Position numbers and translations under genes: made by a program. From a bacterium (GTDB taxonomy: Bacteria > Zhuqueibacterota > QNDG01 > JAGLOF01), in contig JAGLOF010000016.1 of NCBI GenBank assembly GCA_023139105.1, positions 959 through 64,958 of the forward strand: a stretch of DNA of 64,000 nt, given 5' to 3'. Position 1 is the first letter of the stretch, and each line of letters opens with the position of its first letter. The notes below the pieces were generated by a model. That model had not been told where the DNA came from and made no database searches. It was given only the letters and a program-made list of their open reading frames with translations. Below, in pieces: positions 356 through 52,288 of this stretch.

Positions 356-589
356 CTACAAAATCACATACGATCTCATACCATTTTTTAAAAGTATATT
401 AAATATAATGTAAACTGTACAATGGCTAATTTTTTTATAGCTCTGAGCGGCATCGGCTTCAACAGCATTTGCCCCGATAGATGTCGCGGAGCGTAAAAGC
501 TGTTTAGACATAACAAATTCTTTCTTATGGTAAATCAGATATTTATATGTTTCAATAACCTTTAAGGAAAAATCAAAAGTCTTTTCCAA
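356..589 (-). pseudogene. four-helix-bundle protein (23S rRNA intervening-sequence / Avd-like family), C-terminally truncated
   Basis: The first ~53 aa (..FSLKVIETYKYLIYHKKEFVMSKQLLRSATSIGANAVEADAAQSYKK) carry the family hallmark LLRS.TSIGAN..EA. The remaining 24 aa (ISHCTVYIIFNILLKNGMRSYVIL) are unrelated, and the ORF is about half the usual length. Confidence 0.6.
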
Positions 590-604
590 TATTATATTTT
601 ACTT

Positions 605-643
605 TTCATCATTCATCATTCATCATTCATTATTCATTATTCC
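605..643. repeat. 7-bp tandem array A1 (TTCATCA x3, TTCATTA x2, partial unit)
   Basis: Counted directly. It overlaps the last codons of 630..827 and ends 16 nt from the start of 356..589. Confidence 0.95.
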
Positions 644-962: not shown

Positions 963-1022
963 GTACTCTTTCCAATAGAAGTCACTGATTATTTAATAAA
1001 TAAAGTCTGATTCAGCATAGGA

Positions 1023-1277
1023 TTAATCCTCTATTTCAGAAAACTCATCAACAGGCATCAAAATTGACTTTTTGGGTTGACGCGTTGATCCTTGCAAAGC
1101 CAAGAAATCATTCTCAATTTTTTTTAATACTTTGCTTTGAAAGTATTGCTCTCCGCAATAGTCACACTCTTCGCAAGGAACATCATTGACCAATAAAAAG
1201 TGATTATCATGTTTATAGATGTATTGCGTCTTTTTTTCACTGATATTTTTATTACCGCAAAAACTACAGACTTTCAT
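1023..1277 (-). CDS. YgiT-type zinc-finger protein (MqsA-family antitoxin-like)
   Basis: Two CxxC pairs (CSFCG ... CEECDYCGEQYF), 84 aa. It overlaps the upstream DUF4258 gene by 4 nt. Confidence 0.75.
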   Translation of the reverse strand: MKVCSFCGNKNISEKKTQYIYKHDNHFLLVNDVPCEECDYCGEQYFQSKVLKKIENDFLALQGSTRQPKKSILMPVDEFSEIED

Positions 1278-1621
1278 TGTTCACCTCTTTCATATATATT
1301 TTTAAACTTGGGAGGTGTGGGTATATAGACGGTAATAATCACGAGGCAATTATCTCTTACTCCGCATACAACATGAACTGGCACGCCGCTTTCAGTAAAA
1401 CCGCCAAGTAAACAACTTATCCCCCTGCCAGTATCTTCATAAGACTCAATAATCCTGCCGTTTACTATCGCCTCTTCAATATCTGTAATATACAGATTAT
1501 CATTTTGTCTTTCAAGGTCGCCATGCTTTGAAAACCAATAATCGTTGTCCCTGACACAATTTTTGATCCAGTCAATGTCTAAAGTCCTGTCCATAAAATC
1601 CTTCAAAAAACGACAGATCAA
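1274..1621 (-). CDS. DUF4258-family toxin-like protein
   Basis: FSKHGDLERQ...ITDIEEAIVNGRIIESYEDTGRG..PVHVVCG...LVIITVYIP matches the DUF4258 pattern, and the gene is coupled to the zinc-finger gene. An alternative start lies at 1594 (MDRTLD). Confidence 0.7.
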   Translation of the reverse strand: MICRFLKDFMDRTLDIDWIKNCVRDNDYWFSKHGDLERQNDNLYITDIEEAIVNGRIIESYEDTGRGISCLLGGFTESGVPVHVVCGVRDNCLVIITVYIPTPPKFKNIYERGEQ

Positions 1622-1873
1622 TAAAGATCAATGAAAAGGTAAGTGTGTCCATATTTTTCTATAATACTATTATTGACAAGTGAGGCAAGTGCCTTTTGAG
1701 TAGTAGAAACCGCTGAAAGGCGGAATCTGCGAGCATATTGATTCGAAAAAATATTTTGCCCGCTAATTGCCAACACTTATAAATAAATTTCTGATAAGCA
1801 GTCTAACGATCAAACAATTCAAAATGGATAATTAAACACCCCCAACACAAACATCAAGCACCTTCAAAAATTA

Positions 1874-1901
1874 TTCATCATTCATCATTCATCATTCATT
1901 A
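1874..1901. repeat. 7-bp tandem array A2 (TTCATCA x3, TTCATTA x1)
   Basis: Counted directly. It uses the same units and orientation as A1 and ends 5 nt from the hicB stop. Confidence 0.95.
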
Positions 1902-1905
1902 TAAA

Positions 1906-2118
1906 TTATGCAAAAACCAATCGCTTACCACGCGGTTCCGGAACCATATCTCCATAGGCGATTGCAGTATCAATCAATAACCGAATAGCCTCTTCAATAT
2001 TTTTCAGCGCGGTTTCATATGAATCTCCATGGGCACAGCATCCCGGCAGCTCCGGAACCTCTGCAATAAAGAGATTGTCCTCTTCACTCCAATAGATGAT
2101 AATCTCATATTTCCCCAT
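1906..2118 (-). CDS. hicB: HicB-family antitoxin
   Basis: YEIIIYWSEEDNLFIAEVPELPGCCAHGDSYETALKNIEEAI is the classic HicB/UPF0150 N-domain. No intact hicA lies upstream. Confidence 0.8.
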   Translation of the reverse strand: MGKYEIIIYWSEEDNLFIAEVPELPGCCAHGDSYETALKNIEEAIRLLIDTAIAYGDMVPEPRGKRLVFA

Positions 2119-2211
2119 AAGTTTTCATATCCCGGATGTAAAGTTGAGTAGGGAGCTGGCTCATCGCACCTTCTTTGTATGACTGTTAATGGCTTTTGAA
2201 CGTTTTACTCC

Positions 2212-2335
2212 GGTTCTTTTAATAAAAGAGATATAAATTTTTCAGCATCCACACTACCCAACTCTCTGGAAAGTGCATTTAAACCTTTTATTTTTATTTC
2301 CATCTCAGTTAACATTGATCAATCCTCAATTTCAT
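2212..2335. repeat. 124-bp duplicate of 724..847 (5' half of the 65-aa gene plus the end of the PIN-like stub)
   Basis: Hand alignment gives 121/124 identical, in the same orientation. Confidence 0.9.
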
Positions 2336-2353
2336 TAATAAATGCAACCGGAT

Positions 2354-2491
2354 TCAATATAATAATTTTTTACCAATTTCATCATAGGTGGTGCCATCTG
2401 CCATACAACCAGGTAATTCCGGCACTTCTACAACAAAAAATTTATCCTCATCACTCCAATAAATAATCATTTCATAGCGAGTATTAATCAC
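2354..2491 (-). pseudogene. HicB-like N-terminal fragment
   Basis: Hand translation: (V)INTRYEMIIYWSDEDKFFVVEVPELPGCMADGTTYDEIGKKLLY*. It parallels hicB 1906..2118 but stops after ~45 aa. Confidence 0.5.
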
Positions 2492-2495
2492 AAAT

Positions 2496-2807
2496 TTAAT
2501 GACATCTCTTAAAAATCACCTGCCCCTCATCATCAATATGCTTTCTCAGGGCCTTATTCTTTATTTCATGATAGATCAGCACATCAACACAATAGGGGAC
2601 TGGTCCCTTCTCATTCATCAGGATAGAAACAGTACGTGCATCATTAAGGGTCAATTTTTTTCCAAATAAAGCCAAATCAATATCAGAACCCTTCCTGGCA
2701 TTTCCCATAGCCCGCGACCCAAAAAGAACTACTTTTTCAACGGCCTGCTGTGCATGCATGACTGACATCATATAATTATAGCTCTTAGCTGAGATTCCAT
2801 ATTCCAT
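2496..2807 (-). CDS. minimal nucleotidyltransferase (MNT) of an MNT/HEPN pair
   Basis: Contains the GSRAMGNARKGSDIDLAL motif (GS-x-G-x-SD-x-DL). Confidence 0.8.
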   Translation of the reverse strand: MEYGISAKSYNYMMSVMHAQQAVEKVVLFGSRAMGNARKGSDIDLALFGKKLTLNDARTVSILMNEKGPVPYCVDVLIYHEIKNKALRKHIDDEGQVIFKRCH

Positions 2808-3208
2808 TATTGCATCTTCAACAATTGATTATATAGCACCTTCAGCAATGGGAAATAAGTAGTACGGATATCACTCTCAACTCGCAACATGATAGCTTCA
2901 TCGTATACATGGACAGTCAAATTTCTGTCATTGAGCGCTTCCAGCCAATTTTCACCGTCCTCAATCAAATCAATTTGAAAGGCCTGCTTGATTACGTCCC
3001 GGGGCGTTTTCACAAGAAACCCCTCTGATTCCAGGTAATCTTTCAAAGTTTTCCAACCCAATTCAAAGGTAATTTCATAGAATTGTATTAACCCGCCCCG
3101 CTCAGCCTCCGAGGGCTCTGCAATGGACATAGTTCTTTCCAATAAATGGAAAGATTTCTTAAAATTCTCAAATCGCTGTTTCCAACGGATAATCTTAAAA
3201 TTGTCCAT
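2807..3208 (-). CDS. HI0074-family nucleotidyltransferase substrate-binding (HEPN) protein
   Basis: WKQRFENFKKSF..L......E..GLIQ.FE.T.EL.WKTLKDYL fits the family. The likely start is MDNFKII at 3208 rather than the ORF-track start at 3241. Confidence 0.8.
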   Translation of the reverse strand: MDNFKIIRWKQRFENFKKSFHLLERTMSIAEPSEAERGGLIQFYEITFELGWKTLKDYLESEGFLVKTPRDVIKQAFQIDLIEDGENWLEALNDRNLTVHVYDEAIMLRVESDIRTTYFPLLKVLYNQLLKMQ

Positions 3209-3288
3209 GATAGTCCAGGAGCAAATGAAAAGTTTATACACAAAAAGTAACGATTTAGCATCTTTTACAGGACGGACTCTTTACCCTT

Positions 3289-3702
3289 CTAAACATACAA
3301 AGTATAAATAACTGAATAATATTCCTCAAGATCCTTCAGGTGTTTCTCCATAATACTCTTCAGAATATCCAGATCAATTTGCTGATAATCATGTACCGCG
3401 ATATTCCGAAACCCAACCATGCTCGACATCTTATTAAAAATCTCTTTCTCAATCAAACCATTGGTGTGCAGAACATGAAAACATTCCCTGTAAGTAGCAG
3501 GCAACTTCAAACCACGTTCACTGATTACAATATTGGCCATGTCAATTGCCGCTTGAATAGCCCGCTGAAGATTGAGAACAAAAACATCCTGTATCATTAC
3601 ATCATCAAGGCTGGACACATTGAGAGCAGTAACCTTGTGAATAGTGTTCAGACAGTTTTTTATAATAGAAATTTTGGAGAGAATCACATCTTTTTCAAGC
3701 AT
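3289..3702 (-). CDS. hepT: DUF86/HepT HEPN toxin
   Basis: Carries the R-x4-H motif FRNIAVHDYQQID. The likely start MLEKD at 3702 overlaps the end of mntA. Confidence 0.8.
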   Translation of the reverse strand: MLEKDVILSKISIIKNCLNTIHKVTALNVSSLDDVMIQDVFVLNLQRAIQAAIDMANIVISERGLKLPATYRECFHVLHTNGLIEKEIFNKMSSMVGFRNIAVHDYQQIDLDILKSIMEKHLKDLEEYYSVIYTLYV

Positions 3703-4096
3703 AAATCCGCCCATTAAGCATATGCTCTTCAATAATTTTTCGGCTTATCTTAAAATCAATGTATTGAGTGATTATACCTGCCTTATAACTGATAAAAACT
3801 ACCGGATCGTTGTTCACTAAAAGGCGACCATTGGCCAGGGCTTGCATGGAAATGATCAAATCCGCATCATTCAGGAACACAATGTCACATTCATAGGGCG
3901 ATACATCCCAAAACGAACGACGAAAGGCCATTTTATCATCCCATGAAGGGGGCTGAGAAAGATAGACGGCCAGATCAATATCGCTCTCGGCATTGAAACT
4001 ATTGCCAAGAATAGAGCCAAAGGCCAAGGCAAACACGGTCCTAGCTTCAAGAATAGGCGTGACGATTGAGAGAATATGTGATTGATTTTGAGTCAT
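3695..4096 (-). CDS. mntA: MntA-type nucleotidyltransferase antitoxin
   Basis: Contains the FGSILGNSFNAESDIDLAVY motif. The likely start is MTQNQ at 4096. Confidence 0.75.
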   Translation of the reverse strand: MTQNQSHILSIVTPILEARTVFALAFGSILGNSFNAESDIDLAVYLSQPPSWDDKMAFRRSFWDVSPYECDIVFLNDADLIISMQALANGRLLVNNDPVVFISYKAGIITQYIDFKISRKIIEEHMLNGRIYA

Positions 4097-4305
4097 TAAA
4101 ATAAACAACCTATAAATAGAACGGAAGACACTAAGAAATACAAGAACTATTTATTTATACTGGCTCTTCTCCGTGGTTCTCCGTGTGCTTAGTGGGCTAA
4201 TCTTTTAATCTCTTAGGAAATTGAAGAGCACCGCCCACGAGGACACTTAAAGACAATGAAAAATGAATATTGATTTATTGGACATATTGATTAAAATAGA
4301 AGCAT

Positions 4306-4503
4306 CTATTTCAACGTAGCTTCAATCTGTACTAAAAACTGTTCAACATCACTCAGATTCCGAATCATGGCCTGACATATTTGCTCATAATCGATTTTAT
4401 CGTAATCATATACCCATGACCGCCTTTCTCTGGGCCAGGAAATCAAATGCGCTATGACGTATAGATATCTCATATTGATGCCGCATCTCCAGGTCCGAAT
4501 CAC
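4306..4503 (-). pseudogene. HepT/DUF86 tail remnant
   Basis: RRSWVYDYDKIDYEQICQAMIRNLSDVEQFLVQI aligns with RNIAVHDYQQIDLDILKSIMEKHLKDLEEYYSVI of the intact hepT, but with His replaced by Tyr. The N-terminal ~100 aa are missing, and the rest of the ORF overlaps the MNT gene out of frame. Confidence 0.45.
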
Positions 4504-4810
4504 AGAGAATTACGCCTTCACAGACAATTGTGTCGGCCAGCACCAGGTTTTGCAGTGTATTCAGTATGATCACATCAACCTTGTTACACTTTAATGCACG
4601 CATGCAATCGGCAATTAATTGTAACCTGAATTCTAAATTGATACATACGCTATTCACGTAAAAAGCCAAATCTGTATCAGAGACCATTGATCTCTCACCG
4701 GTAACTGTGGAACCAAAACAATAGGCAAAAAGAATTTGGCCTTGATATTTTTTGAATACCGGCTGTAGTTGGATCTGAATTTTTTCGACATCAGAAGAAG
4801 GCATCAGCAT
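4406..4810 (-). CDS. MntA-like nucleotidyltransferase (partner HEPN decayed)
   Basis: Contains the FGSTVTGERSMVSDTDLAFYV motif. The likely start is at 4810 or 4804 (MLMPSSD); the longer ORF-track start adds a hydrophobic artefact. Confidence 0.7.
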   Translation of the reverse strand: MLMPSSDVEKIQIQLQPVFKKYQGQILFAYCFGSTVTGERSMVSDTDLAFYVNSVCINLEFRLQLIADCMRALKCNKVDVIILNTLQNLVLADTIVCEGVILCDSDLEMRHQYEISIRHSAFDFLAQRKAVMGI

Positions 4811-5102
4811 AAATTCTAAAGTTAGAAAATTAAAAAACATAATCAAAGGCAGAGCCCAAGCAATGCTCTGCCAACTCAGTCCCATATCCGGACCGTGCGG
4901 GAGAAAAATAATATTTGTATTGCCAAAGAGATGTGCATTACAAAGTGCTAAAAAAATAATCCACTAAATACACAGTGCTGAATTATTGGCGAATTTAAAA
5001 TCACATGATAATGGATTAGTGGGCTGTAAAAAGATAATAAATTATTCGGTAAAAATCAAGAGCGAATTCTGAATTAATTATATATAACACATCAGCCCAT
5101 TG

Positions 5103-5687
5103 TTATTTTAGATTGACAACAAGTTCATCCTTAAGATATTTCAAGCTACATTTCGGACATATAGCATCAGCACTATTTGAAAAATCCAACCTGGCACCAC
5201 ATTCACATACCCAGCCGACTATGCGTGCAGGATTACCAACTACCAGGGCGTAATCCGGCACATCTCTGATAACAGTGGAACCTGCACCAACAAAACAGTG
5301 CCTGCCAAGTGTATGTCCGCAAACAATGGTAGCATTGGCTCCAATAGAAGCACCTTCCTTGACCAGTGTGTCCAGGTAAAACTTAGAACCACGCTGTGGA
5401 TACTTACATCTGGGGTTCATAATATTTGTAAATACCATTGACGGGCCACAAAATACATAATCCTCAAGAGTGACACCTTCGTAGATTGAAACATTGTTCT
5501 GAATCTTGACATAATTACCGATGGCAACATTATTGGCAACGTTGACATTCTGACCAAGAGTGCAAACTTTACCAATTTTTGTACCGGACTGCACATGAGA
5601 AAAGTGCCAGATACCCGTGCCTTCGCCTATCTCTACATTATCATCCACATAAGCGGATTCGTGAACTCTATATTTTTTTTCACTCAT
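5103..5687 (-). CDS. hexapeptide-repeat N-acetyltransferase, WbpD/WlbB-like
   Basis: Left-handed beta-helix repeats (IG.G..I..F..V...) followed by a C-terminal GNPARIVGWVCECG tail. It sits next to the oxidoreductase and aminotransferase genes. Confidence 0.8.
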   Translation of the reverse strand: MSEKKYRVHESAYVDDNVEIGEGTGIWHFSHVQSGTKIGKVCTLGQNVNVANNVAIGNYVKIQNNVSIYEGVTLEDYVFCGPSMVFTNIMNPRCKYPQRGSKFYLDTLVKEGASIGANATIVCGHTLGRHCFVGAGSTVIRDVPDYALVVGNPARIVGWVCECGARLDFSNSADAICPKCSLKYLKDELVVNLK

Positions 5688-5710
5688 AACTAAACCTTTT
5701 ATTAAAGAAA

Positions 5711-5911
5711 TGGCACACGGATGACACGGATTTGATAGATAAAAGCGGATTAAATATTATAACTCTAAAATAAAAAATTACGTTTATTCCATATTCTGCG
5801 TGTCACTACTATTACTTGAAATTTCATGCATGAAGAATATCCATGCTTTTATTAAAAAAGTTATATTTTTATCAGTGACTATCGCTCTCAATCCGTTCTT
5901 TCCGTGTGCCA
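5711..5911. repeat. inverted pair of CACGGAT-type modules (arms 5711-5732 and 5890-5911) around a 157-nt AT-rich spacer
   Basis: The left arm is TGGCACACGGATGACACGGATT. The reverse complement of the right arm is TGGCACACGGAAAGAACGGATT. They match at 18/22 positions. The pair fills the spacer between 5918..6871 and 5103..5687. Confidence 0.8.
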
Positions 5912-5917
5912 ATGGTT

Positions 5918-6871
5918 TTATAGCTCTTCTGACGCTTTTTCAAGAATCTCCAGCACATCAACGGCATTACGACTATTGGCAATTTCAATGGGCCGGCCGT
6001 CCAGATGCTCAACAAAATAACGCAACTCAGCAGTAAGCGGAGCGTCACCATGGTAGGGAATGACATCACTGGGGCCGTCGCGCTTTACTGGCGCGCCCTG
6101 AATCCAATCTATCCCCTTCTCATAGAATAACAGTTCCTTTTCTTTGGTGGAATCCTCAAAAGAAAGCATACCCTTGGAACCGATTATTACAAGACGCTGC
6201 TCCTTGAAAGGGTGCAGCCAGGAGACAAATATATGGCCGACTATATTATCGGGATACTCCAGAATAGTCATAGTGGAATCATGTATATGGGGTTGTACAA
6301 AAGCACCGCCACGACTGGTAACCGACATAGGTCTATCTTCAATTAAGTACTGAAATATGGCAATATCATGAGGTGCAAAACTCCAGAGAATATTCTCCTC
6401 AGTGCGTACAGTGCCCAGATTAAGGCGATTGGAATAAATATATTGAAGCTTCCCAATCTTCCCCGATCCCAAAAGTTCTTTAATCTTTAAAATAGCAGGA
6501 TGAAAAAGCAGCACATGACCCACCATAAGATTGACACCCTTTTCATCAGCCAAATTTTTCAGAGTATGGGCATCAGCAGCTGTAAGTGTAATGGGTTTCT
6601 CCACCATTACATGATGACCGGCGGTTATAATCTTAAAAGCAAGCTCAAAGTGCGTCTCTGCGGGCGTGGCTACGGTGTAGCCGTCAAAACCGTGCTTAAG
6701 AGCCTCATCCAAAGTCTCAAAGATGCGAAGATCAGGGTAGACCGACTGAAGCTCGGAACACGTGCGTGGATTGGCCTCAACCACACCGCCAAGAGCCTCT
6801 AGTCCGATCAATGTTTTTATATGATTTTTACCCCAACGACCAGCACCGACAACACATACTTTGTAATTCAT
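5918..6871 (-). CDS. Gfo/Idh/MocA-family sugar-nucleotide oxidoreductase, WbpB-like
   Basis: Rossmann start MNYKVCVVGAGRWGKNH. The start at 6871 is preferred: the 22 extra codons of the ORF-track call read through the repeat module (IRVISV). Confidence 0.8.
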   Translation of the reverse strand: MNYKVCVVGAGRWGKNHIKTLIGLEALGGVVEANPRTCSELQSVYPDLRIFETLDEALKHGFDGYTVATPAETHFELAFKIITAGHHVMVEKPITLTAADAHTLKNLADEKGVNLMVGHVLLFHPAILKIKELLGSGKIGKLQYIYSNRLNLGTVRTEENILWSFAPHDIAIFQYLIEDRPMSVTSRGGAFVQPHIHDSTMTILEYPDNIVGHIFVSWLHPFKEQRLVIIGSKGMLSFEDSTKEKELLFYEKGIDWIQGAPVKRDGPSDVIPYHGDAPLTAELRYFVEHLDGRPIEIANSRNAVDVLEILEKASEEL

Positions 6872-6897
6872 AGGATTTCCTTTTAACGAAACAAAGA

Positions 6898-7001
6898 GCA
6901 ATCGCACACTGATGACACGGATTAAATGGATGACCACAGTCTAATTAATTATAAAAAATCCGCTTTGATCCGTTAAATCCGTGGTATCCGTGTTCCATTG
7001 C
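6898..7001. repeat. imperfect inverted repeat of CACGGAT-type modules (arms 6898-6939 and 6960-7001)
   Basis: Hand alignment of the left arm with the reverse complement of the right arm gives 30 of 42 positions complementary. The loop is TCTAATTAATTATAAAAAAT. It lies between 7013..8149 and 5918..6871. Confidence 0.7.
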
Positions 7002-7012
7002 CTTTAATATTT

Positions 7013-8149
7013 TTATCTATAGAACTCACCTATCTTCTGAATAATATAATCCTGCATCTCTGTGGTGAGTTCAGGATAAATAGGCAGAGCAATGGTGCTG
7101 TTGGCAGCTTTTTCTGATTCGGGAAAGTCACCCACTTCATAACCCAGATATTTAAAACATTCCTGTTCATGGAAGGATACAGGATAGTAAACCTCACAGC
7201 CTATACCCGCATCGTTGAGATAGCGGCGAAGATCATCACGATTACCAGGTACTTTGACAATATACTGATTATAAATATGTGATTCACGATTGTAAGCTAT
7301 GTGGGGTTTTAAAAGACCCTCAACATTGAGATGTTCATCGTAGTATGCGGCATTCTGCTGACGTCCCTTGTGCCAGTCATCCAGATGCGGAAGTTTGACA
7401 AGTAAAATAGCAGCCTGCATGGCATCTAACCTGAAGTTACCGCCTACCATTTGATGATAATATTTTGGATGAGCACCATGATTCCGCAATTTTTGAATTT
7501 TATCTGCAAAGGCCTTATCATTGGTCACCACCATACCGCCATCACCCATACAGCCAAGGTTTTTGGATGGAAAGAAGCTGAAACATCCGGCAAGCCCCAT
7601 AGAGCCTGCACGTTTCTCACCGGCTTTGGAAGGATAACGAGACCCAATTGCCTGGGCAGCATCTTCTATAACAGGGATATTATGGCTATCTGCAATCGCC
7701 AAGATGGCATCCATATCAGCACACTGACCGTAGAGATGAACTGGTATTATCGCCTTAACCTTGCTGATCTTATCCTGATTATCATTAAACCAGGCTGAAA
7801 GTTTGGTCGGATCAAGATTATAAGTTAACGGATCAATTCCTACAAAAACAGGTGTAGCACAGAGTCTTGAGATGACACCTGCAGTGGCAAAAAATGAATA
7901 CGGTGTGGTAATAACAATATCACCGTGACCAACACCTATACCCATGAGCGATACAAGAAGAGCATCTGTGCCGCTGGTAACACCAATAGCATATGCAGCA
8001 CCGCAATAATCGGCGACAGCCTCTTCAAGAGCAGTTATTTTAGGGCCGCCAATATATCGCGTTGAATCAATAACATCATTAACAGCAGCCTTAATCTCAT
8101 CACGCAAAGGATCAAGCTGTGCATTTAAATCAAGCAAAGGAACATTCAT
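7013..8149 (-). CDS. DegT/DnrJ/EryC1-family PLP aminotransferase, WbpE-like
   Basis: MNVPLLDLNAQLDPLRDEI.. and FFPSKNLGCMGDGG (PLP-lysine region). The preferred start is at 8149. Confidence 0.85.
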   Translation of the reverse strand: MNVPLLDLNAQLDPLRDEIKAAVNDVIDSTRYIGGPKITALEEAVADYCGAAYAIGVTSGTDALLVSLMGIGVGHGDIVITTPYSFFATAGVISRLCATPVFVGIDPLTYNLDPTKLSAWFNDNQDKISKVKAIIPVHLYGQCADMDAILAIADSHNIPVIEDAAQAIGSRYPSKAGEKRAGSMGLAGCFSFFPSKNLGCMGDGGMVVTNDKAFADKIQKLRNHGAHPKYYHQMVGGNFRLDAMQAAILLVKLPHLDDWHKGRQQNAAYYDEHLNVEGLLKPHIAYNRESHIYNQYIVKVPGNRDDLRRYLNDAGIGCEVYYPVSFHEQECFKYLGYEVGDFPESEKAANSTIALPIYPELTTEMQDYIIQKIGEFYR

Positions 8150-8303
8150 TGTAAATCCTTTCAAAAAAGCCGGTAATATATCAGATAAAGTGATTATTTT
8201 TAAGAGCTTGGCCAACGGAGAAGACGAAAAAGAGCGGAGCAAAGGCAAAAAACAAAAGAAATCATTCCAATCCTACGAAATGTATCTGTTAATATGGCGA
8301 ATG

Positions 8304-8383
8304 AACGAGGGTATAATTGTATTATTATTTAAATCTCTGAGCTTCTTCCCTGTTTTGATCCGCTCTTATCCGTGTTCCATTGC
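8304..8383. repeat. direct repeat copy 1 (TATAAT-containing leader plus CCGTG module)
   Basis: Aligns with 8585..8673. About 70 of 80 positions are identical by hand count. Confidence 0.8.
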
Positions 8384-8584
8384 TCCTGCTCTTCTTCGTA
8401 TCTTTCGTATCCTTCGTAGGCGATGCTCTTTGTTCTTAAGCATGTACTTTTTCCCTTGAACCAGGATGCAGCTCCGCCATGTAAGTCCCATTTTAACGGA
8501 ACCACATGGTGTTTTTTAATGTGCAAAAAATAAATCTCACACTATCTCTATGTCAACAAATCCACAGCAACCGGATTTAAAATA

Positions 8585-8673
8585 AACGAGAGTATAATTA
8601 TATTATTATCTAAATCTCTTCTCTTCTTCCCTGCTTTGATCCACTCTTATCCGTATAATCCGTGTCCCATTGC
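8585..8673. repeat. direct repeat copy 2 (one extra 9-nt ATAATCCGT unit)
   Basis: Aligns with 8304..8383. Confidence 0.8.
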
Positions 8674-8705
8674 ACTCAATCTTCCCGGTAGACTTCAAGC
8701 TCTCA

Positions 8706-8779
8706 ACTTTTTACTTTTTACTTTTTACTTTTGCCCTTTTACTTCCTACTCCCTACTTCCTACTTTCTACTTTCCACTT
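8706..8779. repeat. 7-bp tandem array A3 (ACTTTTT drifting to ACTTCCT / ACTTTCT / ACTTTCC)
   Basis: The AC dinucleotide falls on a 7-nt grid at 8706, 8713, 8720, 8727, 8741, 8748, 8755, 8762, 8769 and 8776. The array ends 6 nt from the upxY stop. Confidence 0.95.
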
Positions 8780-8785
8780 GACCTT

Positions 8786-9316
8786 CTACAAAGCCTTCAC
8801 ATCACTTCTCGAGACACTAAATCGAATCCCCTGCTGCACAGCTTCGAGGCGGATAACAAGACGGGCAGCACCGGCAGTCTCCAAAAAGAGACCACGCAAT
8901 CCCATTAAAGGCCCTCTTATAATCTCAACAGGATCTCCCCGAGAAAAATAATCTACTGCCTCAACTTCAGGCACAGCTTTCAATACACGCTGTATTCTCT
9001 CTATCTCGGAATGCGGAACTTTAATTGGTTGGCCGTGTATATGTACAACGCACAGAGCACCTGTGGCCTGCACTGCCCGATATCGTTCTTTCGCATCAGA
9101 ATTAATAAAAATATATGATCTGAACAAAGGTTCATTGATCCACTTACGCCTGTCAGACCACTGCTTTAATACACGCTGTATTGGCAAATAAAATTCTATA
9201 TCTTTCTGGCGCAGCTGATCGCTGACTTTAAACTCATGACGCGGCCTGGTATAAAGCGCAAACCAGTGACGTTCATCACAGGGTAGTCCAGAAATATCTT
9301 CACGTAAAACTCTCAT
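8786..9316 (-). CDS. upxY: UpxY-family (NusG-like) transcription antiterminator
   Basis: HWFALYTRPRHEFKV.. NGN-like N-domain with a KOW-like C-terminus (GDPVEIIRGPLMGLRG), inside a polysaccharide locus. Confidence 0.8.
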   Translation of the reverse strand: MRVLREDISGLPCDERHWFALYTRPRHEFKVSDQLRQKDIEFYLPIQRVLKQWSDRRKWINEPLFRSYIFINSDAKERYRAVQATGALCVVHIHGQPIKVPHSEIERIQRVLKAVPEVEAVDYFSRGDPVEIIRGPLMGLRGLFLETAGAARLVIRLEAVQQGIRFSVSRSDVKAL

Positions 9317-9433
9317 AATGAATCCAAAAAAACAAGTTATAAGTTTAAAGGCAAAAGGAAAAAGTGAAGAGCAAACGTTTCGTGACTGAAACCCGCGTAC
9401 AAATGGAGTACAGTCTGTTACTACTATTTTTTT

Positions 9434-9534
9434 GCCTTTTGCCTTTTGCCTTTTGCTTTTGCCTTTTTACTTTCTACTTTTGCCTTTTGCTTTTCTACTT
9501 TCTACTTTTACCTTTTACCTTTTACCTTTTACTT
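9434..9534. repeat. 7-bp tandem array A4 (GCCTTTT / ACTTTCT / ACCTTTT, ~14 units)
   Basis: Counted directly. Most units are 7 nt, a few are 6 or 8 nt. It overlaps the wecB stop codon and lies ~118 nt upstream of the upxY start. Confidence 0.95.
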
Positions 9535-10638
9535 AATCTCTTCTTTAAAATACTGTTCCAACACTTTTAAAATTCTATGGCTTACCTTATCATCCCATAG
9601 TTCAGGGATCTTTCCGATCTTTTTATCACCGGCTAATATCTTTAAGGCCTCTGCATAGACTTTGTCAGGGTCAGTACCTGCCAGGACATTACTTCCCTCA
9701 GTAATTGTGACAGGACGTTCCGTATTCTCTCTCACTGTAATACACGGCACGCCAAAAAACGTAGTCTCTTCCTGTATACCACCGGAATCTGTCAATACCA
9801 GTGCAGCATCACGCTGTAGAGCCATGAACTCCAGATAACCTATGGGATCACAAAGCCTGAAACCTTCATTCTCACTGAGATTAAAAAGCTTTGCCATTTT
9901 TCGTGTCCTGGGATGTATGGGAAACAGAATTGGCAGGGTCCCGGCAAGACGATTGAGCATGGCCCAAAGGCCTTTTAGAGACTCGGGATTATCAACATTT
10001 GAGGGACGATGCAAGGTGACAAGCACATAATTGGACTTTGAGAGTTGATGCCGTGTAAGGATTGTACCAGCATCAAAACGATGCTGATGCTGCACCAGAG
10101 ACTCTATCATAAGATTGCCTGTAAAGTGCACCTTATGGGCCGCTATACCCTCCTTGGCCAGATGTTCATGAGCATCCCGACTGGTTGTAAAAAGCAGATC
10201 AGAAAGTTGGTCAGTTAAAATTCTATTTATTTCCTCAGGCATTCTGCGATCTCCACTGCGAAGCCCTGCCTCAACATGTACAAGAGGAATATTAAGTTTG
10301 GCCGCAACAAGCCCTGCGGCAATAGTGGAATTCACATCACCCACTACAAGCACCATATCAGGCTTGCGCTCATGCACTACGGTCTCAACTTCAATCATAA
10401 TTTGAGCCGTCTGCACTGCATGGCTGGCCGAACCCACTCCAAGATACACATCAGGTTCAGGCATACCCAAATCAGTGAAAAACACATCACTCATAGCAGC
10501 ATCATAGTGCTGCCCCGTATGCACCAGGAAAGCATCCAGCAGAGAGGATTCAGCACGAATCCTCTTTAGCAGAGGGGCTACCTTCATAAAATTGGGCCTT
10601 GCACCCGCAACAAGACAAATTGTTTTTTTCAAAGGCAT
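9529..10638 (-). CDS. wecB: UDP-N-acetylglucosamine 2-epimerase (non-hydrolysing), WecB/WbpI-like
   Basis: Full-length match to the family pattern (GARPNFMK..P......HTGQHYD...S..FF..L; DSGGIQEE). Confidence 0.9.
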   Translation of the reverse strand: MPLKKTICLVAGARPNFMKVAPLLKRIRAESSLLDAFLVHTGQHYDAAMSDVFFTDLGMPEPDVYLGVGSASHAVQTAQIMIEVETVVHERKPDMVLVVGDVNSTIAAGLVAAKLNIPLVHVEAGLRSGDRRMPEEINRILTDQLSDLLFTTSRDAHEHLAKEGIAAHKVHFTGNLMIESLVQHQHRFDAGTILTRHQLSKSNYVLVTLHRPSNVDNPESLKGLWAMLNRLAGTLPILFPIHPRTRKMAKLFNLSENEGFRLCDPIGYLEFMALQRDAALVLTDSGGIQEETTFFGVPCITVRENTERPVTITEGSNVLAGTDPDKVYAEALKILAGDKKIGKIPELWDDKVSHRILKVLEQYFKEEIK

Positions 10639-17316: not shown

Positions 17317-17760
17317 AATATCCTCACTATGTTAAATAGTAAATAGAGTAATGTTGCTCATTTGATTAGAATTGTTATACTTAAACGCCAATTATTTCAA
17401 TTTCAAATGAGGAGAATCTGTCCGGCATTAAGCCGGAAAATATCATGAAATTTATGTTCAGGTAATTAAATGTCAACTTACAGTTAATTTATTGACTTAT
17501 GAGTCATTTGTCAACCTTTTTTTCAAGGTTGAAGCTAATATATTATTAAATTTTATCTCATTTACAGAGTACAAATTTCCACTTTGTCAACTTTATACAT
17601 CACTGCAATTTCGCTTCTATTACATACTATAGCCCCAAAAGGACTGACGTCAGAAAATAAATTGTGTGATTGTTACAGAAAACAATGGGTAATATAGAAT
17701 GAAAAATGTTGATATCAAGGAATTCTTATGATCCTGTCCTGCTCTTTTTTTATCTGTGTA

Positions 17761-17888
17761 GGGCAGGGAGGTTCCGTGTATTCCGTGAAGAAATGCTTTT
17801 TCTTTTGGGCTCTTCCGGGTATTCTATGGATTAATAACATATATACCAACATGCTGTGCTCATCTGCGCTCAATCTGCGTTATCTGCG
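17761..17888. repeat. GGGCAGGG + (TTCCGTG)x2 ... (ATCTGCG)x3 module cluster
   Basis: TTCCGTG at 17772 and 17781 (period 9). ATCTGCG at 17862, 17873 and 17882 (periods 11 and 9). The grammar matches 45301-45330. Confidence 0.8.
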
Positions 17889-17982
17889 GATTTATAATTC
17901 CACACTATTGCCGGAAAAGCCTTAAAATAAAAAGAACAATGGGCCTTTTAATCCTGGAAGGATAGCATATCTATTGGCTGCA

Positions 17983-51968: not shown

Positions 51969-52288
51969 AAAAATTTGGGTGTCCCTGTGTCGAAAACAGG
52001 GAAAAACTGTCATCCCTGCATGCTCCTGGCAGGGATCCATCATTTAAAGGCGCACATGTATTAACAGCAGCAGAATCTACATTTTTAATCCTCGCTATTG
52101 TAGACTCCTGACAAGGGCACTCAGGAGTGACATGCTTTTAAGGTTTATGTCATCCGTGTTCAATTTCTTTTCTATTAATCTCATTAATACATTAAATCCG
52201 GATTGCTTTTCAGGCTAAATTTTCGTAAAATGTAAGTTAATCTTCACGTCTTCAGAAAAAGGCACTTATCTGACGGAAAACTATTTTA

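Follow-up and report, generated by a model that had tools for sequence, protein, structure and literature searches.

The window analysed here is a 64,000-nucleotide stretch of contig JAGLOF010000016.1 (assembly GCA_023139105.1, positions 959 to 64,958) from a bacterium of the Zhuqueibacterota, with a source G+C content of 43.6%. The sequence comes from a metagenome assembly, in which upxY and a LolA1_Flavo match are features that point to Bacteroidota. It holds the 5' part of a capsule or O-antigen-type polysaccharide locus on the reverse (-) strand. There upxY, encoding a NusG/RfaH paralog (8786-9316; NF033644, E 1.7e-41), lies upstream of three genes assigned from NCBIfam and gene calls: a wbpE-like gene for a DegT/WbpE-like aminotransferase (8149-7013), a wbpB-like gene for a WbpB-like oxidoreductase of GFO/IDH/MocA type (6871-5918) and a wbpD-like gene for a hexapeptide WbpD-like acetyltransferase (5687-5103). 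The junctions of this wbpE-wbpB-wbpD-like unit (5103-8149, (-)), overlapping or fused in relatives, are occupied here by untranslated spacers of 141 nt (spacer 1, 7012-6872) and 230 nt (spacer 2, 5917-5688). A first-pass annotation had seen in both spacers long inverted repeats of CACGGAT-type modules and had read them as devices of the operon. We find that the arms of these repeats are members of a dispersed, multi-copy intergenic palindromic repeat family. It appears fairly probable that both spacers are 'solo' copies of this cross-phylum family, lacking an open reading frame (ORF), that inserted into once-compact junctions.

Both spacers contain inverted repeats of periodic words

A repeat search recovered an inverted repeat in each spacer. 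In spacer 1 the arms (6898-6931 and 6968-7001) are 34 nt long, 79% complementary and 36 nt apart, in agreement with the long imperfect repeat first described. Those of spacer 2 (5700-5732 and 5890-5922) are 33 nt long, 76% complementary and 157 nt apart; the repeat is again as proposed, with detected arms slightly longer and taking in the wbpB TAA stop codon. The arms are laid out as units of 9-10 nt, AACACGGAT / ACCACGGAT / TTAACGGAT / CAAAGCGGAT, forming "nnCACGGAT" modules with an A/T tract after them.

A hidden Markov model (HMM) of the family, trained only on copies from other genomes, was run on the 64 kb window using nhmmer. It finds exactly six arms, confined to 5.7-8.7 kb, with no significant match in the rest of the window. 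Matches at 7000-6951 (E 2e-11), 5707-5756 (E 3e-11) and 8673-8643 (E 2e-6) are accompanied by weaker ones at 6905-6940 (E 7e-4), 8382-8366 (E 0.013) and 5911-5881 (E 0.03). The 5' arm of spacer 1 (6951-7001, (-); E 2.1e-11), part of the inverted repeat, reads GCAATGGAACACGGAT ACCACGGAT TTAACGGAT CAAAGCGGAT TTTTT and comprises four modules of 9-10 nt; its 3' partner (6898-6940, (-); E 7e-4), paired in the minimum free energy (MFE) fold, has the reverse complement GCAATCGCACACTGAT GACACGGAT TAAATGGAT. In spacer 2, the 5' arm (5881-5922, (-); E 0.03) reads TATAAAACCATTGGCACACGGAA AGAACGGAT TGAGAGCGAT and is likewise paired in the fold, and the 3' arm (5700-5756, (-); E 3.1e-11) belongs to the inverted repeat and has the reverse complement GAAATGGCACACGGAT GACACGGAT TTGATAGAT AAAAGCGGAT TAAAT.

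The two arms beyond those in the first-pass annotation are 5'-arm copies within the 636-nt spacer between upxY and wbpE, where they sit in a 74-nt direct repeat (8300-8373 and 8581-8654, 88% identical). One (8643-8684, (-); E 1.9e-6) reads GCAATGGGACACGGAT TATACGGAT AAGAGTGGAT. The other (8220-8394, (-); E 0.013) reads GCAATGGAACACGGAT AAGAGCGGAT at 8366-8394 and has a degenerate partner arm at 8220-8243, the pair forming an inverted repeat of 24 nt that is 83% complementary with 110 nt between the arms. The six window arms match the family profile, AATGGnACACGGAT followed by two or three further nnnnCGGAT words with a 9-10 nt period, and inverted pairs are present among them; we group such sequences as CACGGAT-word arms of GxxExxY cassettes.

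The module grammar of the arms is real and not due to chance. The window contains CACGGAT 13 times (5.8 +/- 2.3 expected) and ACGGAT-N3-20-ACGGAT four times (0.09 expected), which bears out the grammar proposed for all arms. The same is true of the predicted folding of the spacer RNA. The sense RNA of spacer 1 has an MFE of -39.7 kcal/mol (z -4.14 against dinucleotide shuffles, with 0 of 200 as good) and that of spacer 2 an MFE of -56.4 kcal/mol (z -4.01, 1 of 200 as good). No strand asymmetry of folding was found for either window spacer, with sense versus antisense values of -36.6 vs -35.0 and -56.0 vs -52.8. The 636-nt upxY-wbpE spacer shows a large difference between sense and antisense folding, which was rejected as compositional (z only -1.55). 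Neither spacer has a U-tract or terminator-like site; the sole terminator-like site in 5000-9700 lies inside wbpB. The Bacteroides promoter consensus TTTG...TAnnTTTG was not found in the spacers. A similar TAAAAGG-N7-9-ATG start region follows both spacers, and a second, independent assembly (Logan) is identical to the window, including the orientation of spacer 2.

The arms belong to a repeat family spanning phyla and domains

The family was searched for in 596 Gb of sequence with the pattern ATGGNACACGGATNNNACGGAT, which has 18 specified bases and is present in three window arms. At least 119 loci were found, compared to about 17 (17.3) expected by chance. The family statistics that follow (hosts, pairs, contexts and neighbours) are among the pattern matches listed. 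The hosts belong to Bacteroidota, Chloroflexota, Planctomycetota, Acidobacteriota, Desulfobacterota, Methylococcales, Methanoperedens and others. Isolates are represented by Flavobacterium, Pinibacter, Terrimonas, Arcicella, Gracilimonas, Bacteroides nordii, Geomonas and Methylobacter, and metagenome-assembled genomes (MAGs) by Saprospiraceae, Ignavibacteriota, Calditrichota, Chloroflexota, Planctomycetota, Acidobacteriota, Nitrospinota, Latescibacterota, KSB1, Leptospirales and Defluviitaleaceae; the archaeal carriers are two Methanosarcinales/Methanoperedens MAGs. Among the matches listed, several assemblies have 2-3 loci each. As some copies lie on contigs of more than 1 Mb, mis-binning cannot account for this breadth.

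The arm consensus is AATGG-N-ACACGGAT nnnACGGAT nnnnCGGAT nnCACGGAT with an A/T tract after it, i.e. three or four words of 9-10 nt. An alignment of 132 copies has a sharp conservation edge at (A)ATGG, followed by the four modules, with nothing conserved outside; family-wide, a T follows CCAT in 59% of copies, with no conservation further out. Inverted arm pairs, 95 in all, occur in 69 loci; their modal length, 85 nt, is that of a compact hairpin, and most members have loops of 5-20 nt. The longer members are mosaics that carry other palindromes nested in the loop, or a GxxExxY ORF in that position. In Flavobacterium copies (L013 6601-6832, L020 5927-6197 and L097 4707-4939) a second widespread palindrome, GTCATCCTGAGCGAAGTCGAAGGAC ... 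GTCCTTCGACTTCGCTCAGGATGAC, is nested in the loop of the CACGGAT hairpin. The Methanosarcinales/Methanoperedens hairpin is itself nested in an inverted-repeat element of ~200 nt bounded by GTCATCGGTTAAGAG ... CTCCTTAACCGATGAC (L062 1100-1480 and 4200-4580; L095 3250-3630).

The family itself appears to be undescribed. At the gathering threshold, Rfam matched neither the window nor any of 20 loci that carry near-perfect copies; at a lenient threshold over window positions 5400-9700, the spacers gave only a chance-level match to BTnc060. The literal arm strings are absent from the searchable literature. The BTnc060 match, to a Bacteroides small RNA, runs antisense over spacer 1 (6898-7080, (+)) and scores 22 bits where the gathering score is 229 (E 2.5); this RNA may contain a related repeat. 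A phage element was considered and rejected, as the pattern occurs in only 2 of 2.9 million viral contigs.

Placement of the copies was examined for 67 classifiable pairs, with 40 in tandem, 16 in divergent and 11 in convergent regions. This roughly resembles the expectation of random intergenic siting, and terminators are expected to avoid divergent regions. Folding across the family has no significant strand preference (gene-sense minus antisense MFE, mean +0.95 kcal/mol, p 0.26). The 130 ORFs adjoining elements are spread over 190 Pfam families without any dominant function; neither a transposase family nor any single functional class is enriched among them. Even in Bacteroidales that have UpxY systems, the copies adjoin housekeeping genes, namely those for a TPR protein, prephenate dehydratase, FadL, thioredoxin and RtcB.

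The RNAalifold consensus of 26 compact copies retained only the outer helix, as slippage of the inner modules in the alignment removes the rest. Covariation is seen in these copies at one variable terminal pair (AU 8, GC 8, CG 3, with 6 broken). We therefore compared self and non-self arm complementarity in place of the RNAalifold test. Arms of the same element are 62% complementary, versus 56% for arms of unrelated elements (p 0.004), and the variable trinucleotide is identical in 9 of 16 in-register cases compared to 3.9 expected. Together these values indicate that the word is conserved more strongly than the pairing. Independent divergence of the two arms had been named in the first-pass annotation as the outcome that would speak against its proposals, and the small excess of self complementarity comes close to it.

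A clade of GxxExxY genes is bracketed by the same arms

Four of the pattern-matched loci (L003, L035, L056 and L109) contain a PDDEXK_3 gene, and a fifth such gene is found in L121, a relative of the window locus. By inspection, each of the five is enclosed by inverted periodic words: CACGGAT in L003, L056 and L035, CACGAATT in L109 and CACGAA(G/A) in L121. The enclosed proteins belong to the GxxExxY family (TIGR04256). The three proteins flanked by CACGGAT, from Bacteroidota and Chloroflexota, are 49-57% identical to each other, but only 29-30% identical to the two associated with other words, although L035 from the first group and L109 from the second both come from Saprospiraceae.

As a prediction test, the contexts of seven further homologs of the L003 protein (64-74% identity) were inspected. 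In L207, L208, L213, L214, L215 and L216, CAC[G/A/T]GAT arms or full hairpins lie against the start and stop codons. With L003, L056 and L035 included, the clade is bracketed in this manner in 9 of 10 cases. The flank inverted-repeat scores are 41-75, compared to a 99th percentile of 29 for 1127 control ORFs. The PD-(D/E)XK catalogue lists PDDEXK_3 as a family of unknown function with multiple transfers between Bacteria and Archaea (PMC3424549), and these transfers agree with the distribution of the hairpins. In the literature on GxxExxY/PDDEXK_3 we found only that superfamily entry, marked 'unknown', and incidental mentions.

The window copies do not enclose a GxxExxY gene. A tblastn search with GxxExxY and 23S_rRNA_IVP (IVP) proteins gave no remnant of either inside the spacers, and the AT-rich centre of the spacer 2 element (5757-5880, (-)) is without a recognisable ORF remnant. 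Being ORF-less, the window copies can be regarded as solo derivatives, as can the 85-nt hairpins that make up most of the family.

Long spacers are a derived state of the junctions

A comparison of 86 loci encoding relatives of the WbpB-like protein shows that both junctions were once compact and that the long spacers of the window are derived. In 66 of the 86, wbpB and wbpD form one ORF of ~520-555 amino acids, and the window's split between wbpB and wbpD falls exactly at the variable linker of this fusion. A further 5 of the 86 have a wbpB-wbpD gap of only -42 to 23 nt. At the other junction, 20 relatives show an overlap of 7-10 nt between the wbpE stop and the wbpB start.

Long spacers at both junctions are confined to the closest clade of the window (L121, L122 and L127/L128, at 81-87% identity), and their contents vary by genome. 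Those of L122 hold CACCGAA-word hairpins, and those of L121 CACGAA-word hairpins together with the GxxExxY gene. In L128 each spacer contains an ORF of the 23S_rRNA_IVP (four-helix-bundle) family (PF05635, E 1e-18 to 1e-22), located between inverted GTAAAAA/GGCAAAA heptamer tracts. At the wbpE-wbpB junction of the more distant L152 and L180, IVP ORFs lie between AAGCTGAT octamer tracts; the same junction holds an AAAGGAT hairpin without an ORF in L129 and an MNT/HEPN pair in L169.

The inter-domain linker of fused relatives often consists of a translated run of an 8-9 nt purine-rich word, 30-190 nt in length, as seen in L136, L137, L143, L146, L149-L154 and L157-L159. Examples are GGTCGGAG repeated three times and runs of AGTCAGAG/GTCGGAAG, with the words always on the sense strand. 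These translated runs indicate that such sequences have been landing at the wbpB-wbpD junction for a long time. In L130 and L146 the WbpB-WbpD linker also contains an in-frame CCGGTTGAAT...ATTCAACTGG hairpin.

Other word tracts and genes around the operon

A conserved 25-nt block, TGGGACTKACRTGGCGGAGCTGCRYC, is the sole alignable part of the upxY-wbpE spacers of the window (8452-8479, (-)), L121 (1876-1902) and L128 (753-779). It is located upstream of both spacer 1 and spacer 2. Within it, GGCGGAGCTG bears a faint likeness to the RfaH ops element GGCGGTAGnnTG. By this resemblance the block could be a candidate UpxY loading site, offered as a lead only.

Heptamer tracts of GGTAAAA/GGCAAAA/GTAGAAA type stand on both sides of upxY (9325-9545 and 8700-8785) and are of the kind found beside the IVP genes in L128; the tract upstream of upxY includes a word hairpin with an inverted partner at 9334-9375 (74-94% complementary). 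Beyond it, the same polysaccharide locus carries genes for a Wzc-like kinase and wecB (10638-9529, (-)). Several toxin-antitoxin genes, including MNT/HEPN, are also within the locus. Immediately 3' of wbpD is a run of toxin-antitoxin-type genes (1000-4900, (-)) that includes MntA-like and Polbeta nucleotidyltransferases, HepT-like, NTase_sub_bind and HicB-like members, as well as a DUF4258 gene with a YokU/MqsA-like partner. Two MNT genes of this run are separated by a different type of periodic-word element (4119-4248, (-)); it is composed of CACGGAG/CCCACGAGG words, with GCCCACTAAGCACACGGAGAACCACGGAGAAG and its inverted partners AAGTGTCCTCGTGGGC and TTAGTGTCTTCCGT, and resembles the words of L121.

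Further along, tandem GAATGAT heptamers (~602-641) immediately precede a truncated 23S_rRNA_IVP-family ORF (356-589, (-); PF05635, E 5e-9). Word-like tracts (TTCCGTGTATTCCGTG; CATCTGCGCTCAATCTGCGTTATCTGCGGATTT) and a lone fragment, TGTCATCCGTGTTCAATTTC, were also noted at 17760-17895 (+) and 52148-52170 (+); the fragment is like the outer end of a CACGGAT 3' arm, at a level that is not significant (E 0.29).

Origin of the spacers

We propose the following course of events. The original operon would have had the wbpE stop overlapping the wbpB start, with wbpB and wbpD fused or abutting. Repeat copies would then have entered both junctions, giving rise to the 141- and 230-nt untranslated spacers. 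In the ORF-carrying form, the same arm pair, or a pair of complete hairpins, surrounds a small GxxExxY (PDDEXK_3, PD-(D/E)XK-fold) gene, the product of which may bind the periodic words (9-10 bp each, so roughly one site for each helical turn) and propagate the arms. Once transcribed, the imperfect stems of 35-45 bp may be cut by RNase III, as stems of intervening sequences (IVS) are, thereby separating the cistrons. UpxY may in turn suppress Rho-type polarity, so that untranslated gaps of 140-640 nt become tolerable; such tolerance would explain why antiterminated polysaccharide operons collect elements. The connection to UpxY is then possibly an indirect one, in which a NusG-type antiterminator makes long untranslated spacers tolerable. 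The spacers would be insertions comparable to repetitive extragenic palindromic (REP) sequences, miniature inverted-repeat transposable elements (MITEs) or IVS, selfish or neutral DNA maintained where it is tolerated, and are probably passengers and not regulators.

Several observations weigh against an insertional origin. Movement has not been seen, and neither a target-site duplication nor a pair of near-identical genomes differing in a copy was found; the elements are not accompanied by any recognised transposase or recombinase. The six arms are grouped within 3 kb of the 64 kb available from the source genome, and the window contains no GxxExxY gene. One member of the GxxExxY clade, L211, is without arms, and GxxExxY proteins have no known activity (PMC3424549). 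RNase III processing and tolerance through UpxY are steps that we infer. Finally, relatives have different words at the same junctions, so a structured spacer could be needed at these sites with only its sequence turning over.

The first-pass annotation had put forward two roles for the hairpins. In the first, dedicated intra-operon pause or terminator hairpins would be read through by UpxY-modified RNA polymerase. The stems are indeed strong and lie downstream of upxY and of the ops-like block at 8452-8479, and same-clade relatives also have structured spacers at both junctions. Such a role is nonetheless disfavoured by the lack of a U-tract or called terminator-like site at either spacer, by folding without strand asymmetry and by the absence of any spacer from most relatives. 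Furthermore, the family extends to phyla without UpxY and to archaea, and it is found between divergent genes and beside unrelated ones. We judge this role to be highly improbable, and a conventional intrinsic terminator or attenuator is rejected as well, a G+C-rich stem-loop with a sense U-tract not being present at the spacers. The second proposal was that of REP-like stabiliser or processing sites. Its REP-like half holds, given a dispersed palindromic family, but the evidence against an operon device also counts against elements that set a tuned expression. Exapted sites, with stems that recruit RNase III or block exonucleases and so set WbpE, WbpB and WbpD levels, seem unlikely. REP, ERIC and Correia elements can have mRNA processing or stabilising effects, and the similar start regions after both spacers and the retention of some hairpin at these junctions in all clade members are in keeping with such a role, as is the fact that IVS stems are RNase III substrates (PMC4990558). 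On the other hand, the three enzymes act in one pathway, two of them as a single polypeptide in ~66 relatives, which argues against a need for differential dosage, and arm pairing is only weakly maintained (62% vs 56%).

The stronger conservation of the word than of arm complementarity, and a strict period of 9-10 nt (about one helical turn), would suit DNA-level arrays of cooperative sites for a host nucleoid protein or a regulator of the polysaccharide locus. The neighbourhoods, however, share no regulator and consist of unrelated genes, and it is GxxExxY genes, as opposed to host functions, with which the arms are tightly associated; we judge protein-binding arrays of this kind to be highly improbable. 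Least probable of all is that spacer 2 is an invertible promoter of Bacteroides type, in which inverted repeats around ~160-230 bp are flipped by a recombinase. Capsule promoter invertons of B. fragilis have a similar geometry to the 33-nt arms that stand 157 nt apart in this capsule locus. However, the spacer lacks the promoter consensus, both independent assemblies show one identical sequence and orientation, most family loops (5-20 nt) are too short to invert, and the arms are those of the family and not of the inverton consensus.

Insertion of solo copies into compact junctions thus remains our preferred account of the spacers. A more tentative extension, which we hold to be possible but doubtful, is that the hairpins are the non-autonomous form of an undescribed class of mobile mini-cassette that crosses phyla and domains. 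Such cassettes would carry a GxxExxY PD-(D/E)XK nuclease gene inside inverted periodic-word arrays recognised by its own protein, with a sister class carrying the 23S-IVS protein gene. If true, such elements colonise junctions, split or fuse genes and donate linker peptides, and rRNA intervening sequences would be a special case of them. To our knowledge, GxxExxY (TIGR04256/PF13366) and 'four helix bundle' (TIGR02436/PF05635) genes are among the commonest unexplained small genes of Bacteroidota, Chloroflexota, cyanobacteria and others, and we know of no origin story for 23S rRNA intervening sequences in 35 years. The wrapping of each gene type in inverted periodic-word arrays, with ORF-less hairpins of one word family ranging from Flavobacterium to Methanoperedens, offers a testable protein and cognate repeat framework for both, as is the case with RAYT and REP. 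It also accounts for an annotation problem, that of long structured spacers and spurious ORFs in polysaccharide operons. Such insertions, moreover, can split the gene of a bifunctional enzyme, or translation can continue across them to give a protein linker. As regards the operon, the message is sobering, as these striking hairpins are probably passengers. The interest lies in the family behind them, an apparently undescribed set of cross-domain periodic-word palindromes tied to GxxExxY genes and, via sister words, to 23S-IVS protein genes.

Comparison with known systems

The 23S rRNA IVS of Coxiella, Leptospira and Salmonella share an inverted-repeat stem around a small ORF or nothing, tandem short-period words beside the ORF, and a sporadic, horizontally transferred distribution regarded as selfish. 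The Coxiella burnetii IVS is described as a selfish element with an inverted-repeat stem cut by RNase III, in which the S23p ORF is preceded by three tandem GACAGAT heptamers that vary in number between strains (PMC4990558). This is the architecture of the IVP cassettes in the spacers of relatives, with IVP ORFs present in the orthologous spacers of L128, L152 and L180, and the truncated IVP ORF and heptamers at 356-641 (-) of the window have the same layout. The elements of the two window spacers have the stem and the words but differ in being located in mRNA spacers as opposed to rRNA helices and in being ORF-less, and the CACGGAT word goes with GxxExxY and not IVP genes.

Like the CACGGAT family, Correia/NEMIS and ERIC elements are palindromic insertions that fold into long hairpins. 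Those of Neisseria (Correia/NEMIS) and of enterobacteria (ERIC) are co-transcribed insertions of ~100-150 nt, with long hairpins processed by RNases. In contrast to the family described here, they are genus- or family-restricted, possess defined terminal inverted repeats, duplicate a TA or other target, and lack both periodic words and an ORF form. Cyanobacterial STRR heptamers and small dispersed repeats are tandem 7-nt intergenic words and nest in palindromes by an unknown mechanism, but they are described only in cyanobacteria, and no link to GxxExxY, IVP or an inverted-arm architecture was found in the searchable literature. Rickettsia palindromic elements are tolerated in coding regions, similar to the translated word repeats in the fused WbpB-WbpD linkers of relatives; they belong to another sequence family and host range, and the window copies are untranslated. 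Integron attC sites were rejected, as no GTTRRRY/RYYYAAC core sites were seen by inspection. Terminal inverted repeats, as in MITEs, are present in the window elements and the family, but membership fails because there is neither a target duplication nor a transposase parent: no consistent direct repeat was seen outside ATGG...CCAT, and the ORF-carrying forms contain GxxExxY instead of a transposase.

REP/BIME/REPIN sequences with their RAYT (TnpA_REP) genes are likewise short, multi-copy intergenic palindromes with a dedicated small protein gene flanked by repeats. They occur within operons as well as between genes, whatever the orientation, and frequently form clusters or nested mosaics. The CACGGAT arms differ as 40-50 nt arrays of a periodic 9-nt word, compared to single palindromes of 20-40 nt, and they carry no GTAG/GTGG or CGTC tag, beginning instead at (A)ATGG in the 132 aligned copies. 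The flanked gene is a PD-(D/E)XK-fold GxxExxY and not a Y1 HUH transposase, and the family spans many phyla whereas REPs are species-specific. REPs reach tens to hundreds of copies per genome; for the CACGGAT arms, six are seen in the 64 kb available from the source genome, and several assemblies have 2-3 loci each among the matches listed. Membership of the REP class fails because the GTAG tag and Y1 transposase are lacking; by analogy, REP/RAYT is the closest functional counterpart for a repeat with a cognate small gene.

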